Counted from the stretch's first letter, positions 13 through 33,227 are shown. The stretch is DNA of 64,000 nucleotides from an uncultured Actinomycetota bacterium (GCA_963822615.1 CAWGIM010000018.1:147-64146); one strand, 5' to 3'. The notes: a model not told the origin generated them from the sequence alone. Made by a program: numbers and translations.

Positions 13-1572
13 TCAGGGGCGCGCCGCAGACCGGCCGCGGAGCAGGTTGACCGGCCAGACCACCACGGTGTAGCCGTCCACTCGGTAGCTGCGGGCGGAC
101 GGCCCGAACCGCTCGTCCAGCCGGGCAAGTTCAGCGCGCGTCGGCTGCTGCAGGATCAGGAAACTGGCCGAGTGGCGCCGCGAGTTGTACCACGCCGTGT
201 CGGTCATCCACTGGTACGGCTCGAGCGAGCCGGTGACCGCCCGTACCGTTACCCGGCCGCCAGTCTCGACCGTGACGCTGCTGCTCTGCCAGTAGCCGCC
301 CAGACCCGAGCGCAGGTGGTGGCGGAGGAGCCAGGAAGCCAGAGCTGAGTTCTGCGGCGGCTCGCTCGGCAGGGTCAGCTCACAGCCCAGGCCGGCCAGG
401 TAACCGCACAGCACCAGCAGCCCCGCCAGCGCTCCGGGCCTGACCCGGTACCTGGTCAGCCCCGGCCCGAGCAGCCGGGCGACCAGCGCCGCCGAGTAGG
501 GCAGGACGACGGCGATCTCGTGCGCCCCCTCGGTGGAGGCCAGGGTGCCGAGGTACAGCACCAGGTTGGCCGCGATGCCGACCGCCAGGACCCGGTCGAT
601 CAGGGAAACGCCTGGCCGCCGGCGGCAGGCGTGGCCCAGGGCCGCCAGCACCAGCGCCACGCTGGCCAGGTGGGCCACCGCCACCAGCAGCGGGAAGCCG
701 AGAGGAAGGCCGCGGAAGTCGGCCCCGTACAGGTCGAGTACCCGCCAGAGGGCGGACGCCGCACCGGGCAGTTCGGCCAGGGTGCGCGGCCGCACCGGCA
801 CCGGGCTGGCGACGTAACCGCCCAGGGCGCGGAGCAGCGCCTCGACGGCGAGGGCAAGCCCGAAGCCCGCCAGCGACGCCCCGGCCAGGGCAGCATCGAA
901 CCAGTCGGGCCGGCGGCGGGCCAGCCGGACGGCGAAGCTCAGCCCCGCCACCAGGGCCAGCGGGGCGATGCCGACGATCTCCACCACCGGGTCGGCGACC
1001 AGCACCCAGGCCAGCAGCAGGGCCGCCAGCGGCGGCACCCACCAGCAGCGTCCGCCGCGGTCGATCACCAGCCAGCACAGCAGCAGCGGGACCGCGGTGC
1101 CGATGTGGCCGACCGCCACGTCGACCGCGTAAATGCCGGTGCCGACCTGCGGCGCGATCATCAGGCCGGCCGCCAGCAGGGTCCGGACGACCGCTTCCGG
1201 GCCGCGGCTCGTCCCCCGGGCCAGCAGCACCGTGAGCAGCACCGTGATCGTGTAGGTCATCGCCGCCGCCACGTGGGCGGTCGTCATGCTCAGGCCGAAG
1301 ACCGACTCGAGCAGCGCGTACTGCACCAGCTCGGTCGGGTAGAAGGAGACATCCGACATGTGCCAGCCGTGCAGCACCAGGTTTCCGTGCAGCAGGTCGG
1401 ACCCCATCAGCAGGATATTCGCCATGTCCGAGTTTTCCGCGTAAGTGCTCGAAAGCCGCAGAAAGCAGAAGAAGAGCGCAATTCCAGCGAGCGCGTACCA
1501 TGCTGCGACGCGGATGCGGCGACCCGGCCGGCCCGGCGCGGTTCGCTCACGGTAAAGAACCTGGGCGGTCAT
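13..1572 (-). CDS. Polytopic membrane protein, possibly a GT-C-type glycosyltransferase
   Basis: 523-aa ORF; start moved to the second Met. Many hydrophobic segments followed by a soluble C-terminal region (GYWQSSSVT...). GC-rich third positions. Function is inferred from architecture only. Confidence 0.55.
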   Translation of the reverse strand: MTAQVLYRERTAPGRPGRRIRVAAWYALAGIALFFCFLRLSSTYAENSDMANILLMGSDLLHGNLVLHGWHMSDVSFYPTELVQYALLESVFGLSMTTAHVAAAMTYTITVLLTVLLARGTSRGPEAVVRTLLAAGLMIAPQVGTGIYAVDVAVGHIGTAVPLLLCWLVIDRGGRCWWVPPLAALLLAWVLVADPVVEIVGIAPLALVAGLSFAVRLARRRPDWFDAALAGASLAGFGLALAVEALLRALGGYVASPVPVRPRTLAELPGAASALWRVLDLYGADFRGLPLGFPLLVAVAHLASVALVLAALGHACRRRPGVSLIDRVLAVGIAANLVLYLGTLASTEGAHEIAVVLPYSAALVARLLGPGLTRYRVRPGALAGLLVLCGYLAGLGCELTLPSEPPQNSALASWLLRHHLRSGLGGYWQSSSVTVETGGRVTVRAVTGSLEPYQWMTDTAWYNSRRHSASFLILQQPTRAELARLDERFGPSARSYRVDGYTVVVWPVNLLRGRSAARP

Positions 1573-31442: not shown

Positions 31443-31952
31443 CTAGCGACCAGGGTCGCGCAGCAGGATGAAGTTGTTCGCGGTCACCTTCATCACCAGC
31501 TCGCCATCGGCGTTGAGCAGCTCGGCCAGCGTGGTCACGATGCCGCGGTCCGGCTTGCTGGCCGAGCGGCGGGCCTGCTTGACGGTCGCCCGGACGCGCA
31601 GCGTGTCGCCCGGGCGGACCGGCCGCGGCCAGCGGATCTCGTCGACCCCCGGGGAGCCGATGCTGCTCTCCGGGCTGACGTAGTAGTCGACCAGGTGGCG
31701 CATCATCATGCTGGTGGTGTGCCAGCCGCTGGCGATCAGGCCCCCGAACGGTCCGTCCTTAGCCGCCGCCGGGTCGACGTGGAAGGGCTGCGGGTCGAAC
31801 TCCCGCGCGAAGGCGATGATCCCCGGCTCGGTCATCGTGAACGCGCCGCAGTCGATTACCGTCCCCGGCACGTAGTCCTCGAAGTACCGGATCACCCGCT
31901 CAGGTTGCTCAGTCACGTCCGCCAGTATCCCAATGGCCAGTTCAGACGTCAC
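31443..31952 (-). CDS. MaoC family dehydratase
   Basis: 'YFEDY..G', 'FAREFDPQPFHVD', 'GLIASGWHT' and 'RW..PVRPGDTL'. Confidence 0.9.
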   Translation of the reverse strand: MTSELAIGILADVTEQPERVIRYFEDYVPGTVIDCGAFTMTEPGIIAFAREFDPQPFHVDPAAAKDGPFGGLIASGWHTTSMMMRHLVDYYVSPESSIGSPGVDEIRWPRPVRPGDTLRVRATVKQARRSASKPDRGIVTTLAELLNADGELVMKVTANNFILLRDPGR

Positions 31953-32127
31953 CAGGCGGCCAATTTCTGTCCCCCTGGCTACCCATCTGTCCGTATTCGA
32001 TCACGGCCCGGTCACGGAAAAAACTCGGTTTGCCTGCGGCGCGCAATCGGCCCCTGCCATAGTTCCACTCAGCGGTTCGACAGGGATGAATGACCAGAAA
32101 AGGCATCAGACCCCCGCAAACCGCCAT

Positions 32128-32220
32128 CCTACGGGCGAGCCAATCTGGCTCGCCCGCGCGTAGGCCCGCCGAGAGGCAAGACAGCCGCGTAGGCCGGGCG
32201 AGGCACCAATCTCGGGGAGA
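32128..32220 (+). promoter_or_regulatory. Candidate structured 5' leader RNA upstream of the LysM/lytic transglycosylase gene
   Basis: 10-bp hairpin at 32132-32156, a GCC-GAGA-GGC hairpin at 32168-32177, and duplicated segments that allow alternative pairings. RBS GGGGAGA at 32214-32220. Confidence 0.45.
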
Positions 32221-32222
32221 TA

Positions 32223-33227
32223 ATGACTGCTCGGCGCACCGCCCGCGGGCCGGTGGGGATTCGGCGCAGGGGACGGCACAGCACCCCCTCGCAGGTGGAG
32301 AAGGTGGCACTGCAGGCGGGCAAGGCCGCCCCGGCGGTCGCCATCGCGGGCGCGGTGGTGATGTCACCGCAGGCGCTGCCCGCGCTCGCGGCACAGCCGG
32401 CCGCCGCCACGGCGACCGCCCACCAGGCGACCGCGGGCCGTCAGGCGGCCGGCCCCGGCGCGACCGCGGCCACGCTCGACTCGTTCCAGACGCGCACCGT
32501 CGCCGTCACCGCGGCCAGCACCGCCCGGCACGCCGCGGCGGCCAGGAGCACCGTCTACCGGGTCCGCAGCGGCGACTCGCTGTCCCAGATCGCCAGCCGC
32601 CACTACCACAACGCGGCCGCGTGGCAGTACCTGTACCACGAGAACGCGAAGGAGATCTCCGACCCGGACCTGATCTACCCGGGCGAGACCCTCATGCTCC
32701 CCGCCAGCGTGCCCGCTCACTTCACGCTGACCAACTACGTGCCGCGGCACGCCAAGCCGGTCACCGCCGCCCCGGTCGCCGCCCAGCCGGCCAGCCACCG
32801 CAGCAGCGGGCACAGCCGAGGCGGGTCAGCCGCCATCGCCGGCCCCGCCAGGGGTTCCACCATCGGCGGCGGGCGCTCTTCCAGCGGCGGCGGCTCTTCC
32901 GCCGGCAGCGGCTCGGTCGTCGTGCAGGCGGCCGCGCAGGGCCAGTACAGCTGCTCGGGCCTCGAGCAGATCTGGGAGCAGGCGGGCGGCAGCCCGTCCC
33001 ACGCGTTCATGGCGGCCGAGATCGCGATGGCCGAGTCCGGCGGCAACCCGAACGCGATCAGCCCGACCGACGACTTCGGCCTGTGGCAGATCAACGCCTC
33101 CAACGGCGCCCTCGCCACCCTTAACCCGTTCCAGAACGCGCGCTCGGCGGTCGTCATGTCGGACGACGGCACCAACTGGGGCCCGTGGACCACCTACACC
33201 AGCGGCGCCTACTCCGGCCGCTGCTGA
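32223..33227 (+). CDS. Secreted LysM + lysozyme-like (lytic transglycosylase) cell-wall hydrolase
   Basis: LysM 'YRVRSGDSLSQIA...W..LY..N...I.DPDLIYPG..L'. C-terminal 'AMAESGGNPNA.....FGLWQIN...W.PW' carries the catalytic Glu. Confidence 0.88.
   Translation: MTARRTARGPVGIRRRGRHSTPSQVEKVALQAGKAAPAVAIAGAVVMSPQALPALAAQPAAATATAHQATAGRQAAGPGATAATLDSFQTRTVAVTAASTARHAAAARSTVYRVRSGDSLSQIASRHYHNAAAWQYLYHENAKEISDPDLIYPGETLMLPASVPAHFTLTNYVPRHAKPVTAAPVAAQPASHRSSGHSRGGSAAIAGPARGSTIGGGRSSSGGGSSAGSGSVVVQAAAQGQYSCSGLEQIWEQAGGSPSHAFMAAEIAMAESGGNPNAISPTDDFGLWQINASNGALATLNPFQNARSAVVMSDDGTNWGPWTTYTSGAYSGRC

Follow-up and report, generated by a model that had tools for sequence, protein, structure and literature searches.

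The window, as we call the whole 64-kb stretch of DNA analysed here, belongs to a Trebonia-like soil actinomycete and carries a peptidoglycan hydrolase gene preceded by a promoter region and a structured leader on the same strand (Table 1). A first-pass annotation had placed a riboswitch candidate ahead of a lytic-transglycosylase-type gene with LysM domain, and both the Pfam domains and the relatives described below bear out a conserved, structured leader in front of a gene of this type. Judged by its sequence, the enzyme is Rpf-like, lysozyme-like and membrane-anchored, with an N-terminal RRRGRHxxPSQ tail ahead of a hydrophobic segment. Residues 1-36 (32223-32330) follow the pattern MTA.R....P..IRRRGRH..PSQVEKVA and then the hydrophobic segment; this tail is the best-conserved part of the protein apart from the catalytic domain, and it resembles the GRHRKP motif that opens mycobacterial RpfA. 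Muralytic enzymes of the Rpf and LysM kind can kill the cell that produces them, hence their tight control.

A coding role for the leader, either as an upstream open reading frame or as an N-terminal extension of the hydrolase, was ruled out because an in-frame TAG lies at 32190 and the indels among relatives are not multiples of three. Folding of the single leader yielded a minimum free energy of -71.7 kcal/mol versus -63.1 +/- 4.3 kcal/mol for shuffled sequences (z = -1.99); among 200 shuffles, 6 gave an equally stable fold. Since one leader stands only modestly above its shuffles, the case rests on comparison with relatives.

Table 1. Features of the hydrolase locus, numbered from the first nucleotide of the window.
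Feature	Position	Strand	Remarks
Direct repeats GATCACG (31999-32005) and GGTCACG (32010-32016)	31999-32016	+	11-bp period; candidate MtrA-type response-regulator box
A/T-rich tract GAAAAAACTCGGTTT	32017-32031	+	near-invariant in groups 1 and 2; GAATTTCGTCAATTT at this place in group 3
GCCTGCG block, -35 region	32032-32038	+	conserved
Extended -10 element TG-c-CATAGT	32055-32063	+	TG and nATnnT in all groups
Structured leader RNA	32064-32225	+	ends at the ATG of the LysM + SLT_3 hydrolase gene
Predicted transcription start	32069-32072	+	from distance to the -10 element; leader of ~152-155 nt
5' domain, P1-P2-P3	32072-32124	+	RNAfold prediction and covariation
P1	32072-32079 with 32115-32124	+	RNAfold and relatives
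P2	32083-32085 with 32111-32113	+	RNAfold and relatives
P3, variable hairpin	32087-32095 with 32102-32108	+	RNAfold
P4, 11-bp GC-rich hairpin, loop AUC	32132-32156	+	complementarity and relatives
Core hairpin, 37 nt	32163-32199	+	near-invariant across relatives
P5, GCCCG with CGGGC	32164-32168 with 32195-32199	+	invariant
Core 5' loop strand CCGAGA	32169-32174	+	near-invariant; opposite GCGUAGG
P6, GGC with GCC, loop AAGACA	32175-32177 with 32184-32186	+	compensatory changes
Core 3' loop strand GCGUAGGC	32187-32194	+	near-invariant
Linker GAGGCACCAAUCUC, core to Shine-Dalgarno sequence	32200-32213	+	consensus of relatives GAGGCAnCGACCwU
Shine-Dalgarno sequence GGGGAGA	32214-32220	+	present in all relatives
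Start codon ATG	32223-32225	+	present in all relatives
LysM + SLT_3/SLT peptidoglycan hydrolase gene, 334 aa	32223-33227	+	Pfam PF01476, PF18896, PF01464

Distribution of the leader and comparison with known RNA families

The hydrolase has 1939 relatives at E<=1e-10, and the 120 listed of these 1939 combine LysM with SLT_3; the named proteins among the same 120 are called 'LysM repeat protein' or come from Trebonia sp. We gathered about 90 distinct leaders from protein-guided loci and from DNA-pattern scans of genome contigs and of metagenome contigs. These share one architecture and originate from Trebonia kvetii, from MAGs of Trebonia and Streptosporangiaceae, from one Nocardiopsaceae MAG and from soil metagenomes; Trebonia is assigned to the family Treboniaceae in the order Streptosporangiales. 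A covariance model built from 37 leaders identified 87 homologous leaders, exactly one per locus, and its sole match within the 64-kb window lies at 32064-32225 (127.7 bits, E = 2.6e-35). The motif was found before a single gene family. Matches of the model to the core only, in loci L053 and L056, were discarded as chance hits inside coding sequence.

Sequence groups differ in how much of the leader they share. P3 is missing from group 2 leaders, whose middle part also differs, and in group 3, whose proteins are 46-50% identical and begin with GTG, the plan is retained with altered helices. Three variants have lost whole modules: L065 (1861-1965, +) and L092 (1814-1965, +) keep the promoter, core and Shine-Dalgarno sequence with P1-P4 gone, and L145 (~560-700) keeps the 5' domain with P4 and core gone, the Shine-Dalgarno sequence following directly. 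Independent loss in these three indicates that the modules are separable, which counts against one compact aptamer comprising all of them; and because variants exist either without the 5' half or without the core, neither module is indispensable for the gene.

Searches against Rfam 15 at the gathering threshold returned two tRNAs and nothing else in the whole 64-kb window, and no relevant match in 31900-32350 at E<=10. Across the loci of 20 relatives, the leader was unmatched both at the gathering threshold and at E<=5. As the first-pass annotation had supposed, the leader is not a plain match to an Rfam family in either search; it is neither ydaO nor lysM-Actino nor any other curated family. 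The reported echo of the ydaO 3' end did not withstand this comparison: its GACAGC sits in the variable P6 loop, and no ydaO match appeared in the window at E<=10 or in the 20 relatives at E<=5.

The leader nevertheless resembles ydaO-yuaA (RF00379) in its location, ydaO being found in 5' leaders of genes for peptidoglycan hydrolases in actinobacteria (PMC10117811), in its similar length and in a short CGUAGG/CGUAAG-like string. It differs in lacking from its consensus the purine-rich GGGGAnCC and GGGGUGAAUC blocks of the pseudo-two-fold, multi-helix ydaO fold, and in consisting of three hairpin modules in series without a terminator. The ydaO fold also includes a pseudoknot; in an alignment of 75 sequences of the present leader, no additional long-range covariation was found.

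Comparable orphan RNAs are known from the same gene classes. Weinberg et al. (2017, PMC5737381) presented the lysM-Actino, lysM-TM7, lysM-Prevotella and M23 motifs as candidates related to c-di-AMP, although they did not bind this nucleotide. Like the present leader, they are lineage-restricted structured leaders before LysM or peptidase cell-wall genes, with a suspected c-di-AMP link (PMC5737381); they differ in that the present leader belongs to another clade (Treboniaceae/Streptosporangiales), has three hairpin modules and an invariant CCGAGA/GCGUAGG loop, and gave no match to them in Rfam 15 at any threshold used. The Streptococcus YjbJ motif, a weak riboswitch candidate of one genus located ~30 nt upstream of a lytic transglycosylase Shine-Dalgarno sequence, is an earlier example of an orphan motif on such genes (PMC11109978), although it is much smaller and unrelated in phylum and sequence.

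A loose pattern for the core also matched T-box-like leaders in Clostridiales and Oscillospiraceae MAGs (L038:274-304, +; L046:4979-5011, -). These matches lie in an AGAGAG...GGTGGAAGCGGG context, and their superficial likeness is confined to CCCGCYGAACGG..AAGTAGG..GGGC.

Promoter and upstream repeat box

The CATAGT at 32058-32063, from which a leader of about 150 nt had been proposed, proved to be part of a conserved extended -10 element and is consistent with that length. Among relatives the hexamer alternates between CATAGT and CATGCT or GATGCT; A2 and T6 stay constant and the letters between them vary, which is the behaviour of a TG-extended -10 element. Between GCCTGCG and CTGnnATnnT lies a spacer of variable sequence whose length is exactly 15 nt in 73 of the 75 promoters. 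Transcription most likely begins ~7 nt past TGcCATAGT, near 32070, and the A/T-rich tract upstream is UP-element-like, a putative function suggested by its sequence.

A promoter scan detected no consensus sigma-70 -35/-10 pair. A sigma-70 promoter with TTGCCT as its -35 element was rejected on account of a 22-nt spacer to CATAGT, which is too long, and ECF, SigB/F and WhiG-type promoters were set aside when the motifs considered did not fit. A search for RNA data returned one run, X2, which was dismissed as RNA evidence, since it gave one contiguous contig over genes and spacer, a DNA-like behaviour.

Further upstream, the repeat box (ATCACG-N5-GTCACG in the window) is the sole RTCACR-N4-RRTCACR site in 64 kb, where 0.02 would be expected, and ~75 relatives keep the ATCAC repeats, with a constant spacing to the -10 element. 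MtrA motifs in the literature consist of direct repeats of 5-6 bp, (G/A)TnAC, with an 11-bp period, and MtrA targets in M. tuberculosis include rpfA-E and ripA. The present box shares with the MtrA boxes of Mycobacterium, Corynebacterium and Streptomyces the two direct repeats, the 11-bp period and the position upstream of cell-wall hydrolase genes; it differs at the first position of the repeats, which read ATCAC and not GTnAC. Among the published consensus forms (c-G-T/A-n-A-C/T-c; n-A/G-T-a-A-C-a; G/T-T-G/A-A-C-C), comparison by eye shows that the C. glutamicum form (A/G)T-a-AC accommodates ATCAC, and that the M. tuberculosis and S. coelicolor forms agree with it at 4 of 5 positions. Similar direct repeats are also recognised by other OmpR/PhoB-family regulators. 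An MtrA-type activator site is a reasonable, if tentative, reading of this candidate box. A CRP-type site (TGTGA-N6-TCACA) was rejected because the repeats are direct, not inverted.

In an operator-pattern scan, the matches listed were mostly chance occurrences in unrelated phyla; the informative ones were L177, L198, L223 and the Catellatospora ftsE sites. At the latter, again among the matches listed, the same kind of direct-repeat box as here, GATCACGnnnnGATCACGGAATTT, stands ~140 nt upstream of ftsE (TIGR02673, 278.5 bits) in three Catellatospora species (L155:2174-2197, -; L179:4317-4340, -; L183:2438-2461, -), which suggests a possible common actinomycete regulator of cell-division and cell-wall genes. 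At L177:3272-3295 (-), the 43-nt block GTCCGTATTTGATCACGACATGATCACGGAAAAAACTCGGTTT occurs a second time in the genome that holds locus L007, on a different contig; with neither -10 element nor leader, and just a 55-aa ORF after it, this copy could be what is left of a promoter or else another member of the regulon.

Helices, core and linker of the leader RNA

Covariation was counted mainly on an alignment of related sequences fitted to the model. Over 75 distinct sequences in this model-fitted alignment, pairing is retained in 85.7% of cells, and both sides have changed in 22 of 31 pairs. The covariation score is 0.157 versus 0.096 for shuffles, none of 500 of which reach 0.157, and slid partners score no higher than 0.048. 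A test of strand gave a weak signal, with 134 G-U cells versus 99 A-C cells. Covariation among homologues, the check proposed in the first-pass annotation, was found in P1, P2, P4 and P6. A mutual-information scan of all column pairs in the 75-sequence alignment revealed no convincing pseudoknot or long-range pair.

Within the 5' domain, 10 of 11 P1/P2 pairs show changes on both sides in the model-fitted alignment (for example UA:14 AU:13 CG:9; CG:23 GC:15), and the exchanges recur in a plain, structure-unfitted MAFFT alignment (UA:11 AU:10; CG:17 GC:8). The blocks GGAyGAAwG and CAGAcC occupy the junctions of this domain. Mean column conservation is 0.64 in the 5' domain and 0.52 in P4 plus linker, so that P1-P4 are less conserved (0.52-0.64), but their pairing is retained. 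A K-turn was considered and rejected both in the 5' domain, where the G of the GA is not conserved in group 2 and L139-type leaders, and in the core, which has UA where GA is required.

P4, which had been read as a 10-bp hairpin, is present with 11 bp instead (32132-32142 with 32146-32156, 100% complementary, 3-nt loop). Relatives carry a hairpin in the same place with another distal sequence; 91% of its cells are paired and 6 of 6 pairs are doubly changed. The group 3 equivalent is GATCAC-AAAC-GTGATC. P4 is not followed by a U-tract, and no terminator was found.

The first-pass annotation had built a two-state model on repeats around this hairpin, and in the window the repeats are indeed present. 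The left arm, CGGGCGAG(G)CA, occurs again at 32195-32205 with 10 of 11 positions identical, and CCAATCT is found at both 32140-32146 and 32206-32212. The right arm (32146-32156) consequently has two possible partners, being 91% complementary to 32195-32205 as well. In addition, CGCGTAGGCC is duplicated at 32157 and 32186 within a 17-nt repeat (88% identical), and CCTACG (32128-32133) is complementary to CGTAGG.

A switch that pairs the right arm of P4 either with the left arm of P4 or with the SD-adjoining CGGGCGAGG would draw on an alternative duplex that amounts to -20.3 kcal/mol in the window and in the nearly identical L061, and most group 1 P4 arms open with GCGGGC and close with GCCCGC, mimicking the arms of P5. 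Native P4 is the stronger helix in the window (-24.6 kcal/mol), however, and over 50 leaders the alternative duplex has a median of -10.9 kcal/mol, with -15 kcal/mol or lower in only 7. The elements on which the model depends do not extend beyond the lineage of the window: the second CGGGCGAG..CCAATCT and the first CGCGTAGGCC occur in the window and L061, and partly in L088, the CGCGTAGGCC duplication together with the repeated CCAATCT being confined to the window and L061. P4 arms are unrelated in L005, L009 and L072, P4 is absent from L065 and L092 with the core kept, and groups 2 and 3 have other hairpins in its place. We therefore consider such a switch quite improbable.

No conserved strand complementary to the Shine-Dalgarno sequence was detected in leaders of groups 1 and 2, and the predicted accessibility of the Shine-Dalgarno sequence is average (0.39 versus 0.41 for the whole leader). 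In group 3, an invariant GCUC that immediately precedes P5 could pair with GAGC in the Shine-Dalgarno sequence GGGGAGCU.

The core hairpin is the best-conserved part of the leader, with a mean column conservation of 0.87 compared with 0.86 at the first two codon positions in the catalytic domain and 0.78 at four-fold degenerate sites. It occurs once per locus, with no second copy within the 64-kb window. P5 and the internal loop are invariant, and their pairing is therefore unproven by covariation. In P6, by comparison, the variants GGC:GCC, GGCG:CGCC, GGCU:AGCC, GACG:CGUC, GCUGC:GCAGC, CUGCUC:GAGCAG and GCUCC:GGAGC occur, around a loop of 3-10 nt among relatives and with a 25-nt insertion in L150. 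These compensatory changes, together with the variable loop, disfavour both a DNA operator and the GNRA-capped GCC-GAGA-GGC mini-hairpin of the first-pass annotation; the sequence of the latter is present at 32168-32177, but the mini-hairpin is not kept in L117, L119, L146 or group 3, and P6 covaries instead.

Across 67 distinct cores the loop is CCGA(G/A/U)(A/C) opposite N-GUA-(G/A)-G. At the sequence level, GUA opposite GA, flanked by Watson-Crick pairs, is present in 66 of the 67, and the position adjoining GUA/GA is G-C in 45, A-A in 8 and other combinations in 14. In our reading this loop fits the sequence signature of a bulged-G motif of the loop-E or sarcin-ricin type: the likeness, one of sequence pattern alone, lies in GUA facing GA between C-G pairs. 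The asymmetric loop may thus form a bulged-G (loop-E/sarcin-ricin-like) stack.

The linker conserves its length of ~14 nt and the letters CAnCgAC, group 3 included, and no pairing partner for it was found among the alignment column pairs. An anti-SD strand, and pairing by eye of the linker CGAC with the 5' strand of P1 or with the P4-P5 linker, were tried and rejected, as they show no covariation. The distance from core to Shine-Dalgarno sequence is fixed, whereas that from core to promoter ranges from ~13 to ~110 nt.

This spacing bears on control at the DNA level only, in which the blocks downstream of the promoter would be operators and the RNA structure incidental. In the intergenic region upstream of the start, conservation is highest in blocks that plainly belong to the DNA (the ATCAC repeats, the spacer of constant length and the -10 element); the two arms of P5 make up an inverted repeat that does not vary, and the P4 equivalent of group 3 reuses the ATCAC hexamer of the upstream box. 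Operators would be hard to reconcile, however, with a core that keeps its distance from the Shine-Dalgarno sequence and not from the promoter, with core halves whose spacing varies (3-10 nt, 25 nt in L150) while the bases between them remain paired by compensation, or with the covariation of P1, P2 and P4 despite sequence drift. We regard purely DNA-level control as improbable.

Candidate roles of the leader and neighbouring observations

The reading that we favour, with moderate confidence, is an uncatalogued, lineage-restricted cis-regulatory leader whose core is bound by a protein or a small ligand. The RNA comprises three serial modules: the 5' domain P1-P2-P3, the GC hairpin P4 and the 37-nt core. 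The core would be recognised by its sequence and offer a docking site to a factor acting in trans, which could be an RNA-binding protein or a small ligand, and the occupied core might alter 30S access or mRNA stability, with less synthesis of a potentially autolytic enzyme as the predicted output. The 5' domain and P4 would be accessory modules acting through their shape. What stands of the undescribed cis-regulatory RNA switch put forward in the first-pass annotation is accordingly a conserved, covarying leader outside Rfam; its two-state mechanism does not.

A new class of metabolite or second-messenger riboswitch, responding for example to c-di-AMP or a cell-wall precursor and replacing the ydaO of rpfA-type hydrolases in Streptomyces and Mycobacterium, is a tentative possibility to which we give limited credence. 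Covarying helices combined with invariant loop nucleotides are consistent with it, as is the GCUC of group 3 that could pair with the Shine-Dalgarno sequence; the gene class is often under ydaO control (PMC10117811), and roles related to c-di-AMP have already been suspected for orphan motifs associated with lysM, although the published ones did not bind c-di-AMP (PMC5737381). Several features argue against a riboswitch: the absence of ydaO or lysM-* similarity, the restriction to a single gene family with one copy per locus, the serial hairpins with no multi-helix junction or supported pseudoknot found, the independent loss of modules (L065, L092, L145), and the lack of a terminator and, in groups 1 and 2, of a conserved anti-SD.

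It appears unlikely that the 37-nt core, alone or with the 5' domain, directly senses an envelope or second-messenger signal and took over in Treboniaceae the job that ydaO performs for rpfA-type genes; a sensor of c-di-AMP specifically is less likely. Six or seven Streptomyces cell-wall hydrolase genes, rpfA included, carry ydaO (PMC10117811), so a functional replacement in Treboniaceae would be biologically sensible.

Treboniaceae are abundant and barely studied soil actinomycetes. In model actinomycetes, MtrA or Crp at the promoter is layered with a c-di-AMP riboswitch in the leader; in Treboniaceae a gene of this kind is preceded by another, uncatalogued leader RNA, one part of which equals the catalytic domain in conservation. 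Naming the binder of the core would add one more solved case among the orphan lysM-associated RNA motifs, and because Trebonia kvetii has been cultured, the docking hypothesis is open to bench testing.

That the leader has no dedicated regulatory role, and is simply a structured 5' UTR, useful for mRNA stability or persisting as evolutionary baggage, seems very improbable to us. Loss of either module in natural variants would suit it, as would the failure to find an expression platform (no terminator, no conserved anti-SD in groups 1 and 2); against it, the core is conserved like the codons of the catalytic domain across proteins that are 46-65% identical, and its spacing to the Shine-Dalgarno sequence is fixed.

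Other observations concern the surroundings of the gene. Two MAGs each contain two near-identical gene copies with the same promoter and leader on separate contigs (L117/L118 and L122/L129), which could be recent duplications or assembly redundancy. The Mycobacterium sRNA family Ms_IGR-8 gave sub-threshold matches on both strands shortly after the end of the LysM-SLT gene (L133:1706-1784, 29.2 bits; L127:1689-1745, 23.5 bits; gathering score 44), which probably reflect a terminator-like palindrome. In the group 3 loci L131, L132, L134, L147 (~325-334, minus strand) and L135 (~88), the divergent neighbour encodes a YCII-like protein (MSQYLILIYADE...). The conserved block upstream of that gene, TGTCGATCCG-N-CGTCGGTGA, looks like an ECF-sigma-type promoter, with TGTCGA as a putative -35 and CGTC as a putative -10 element.
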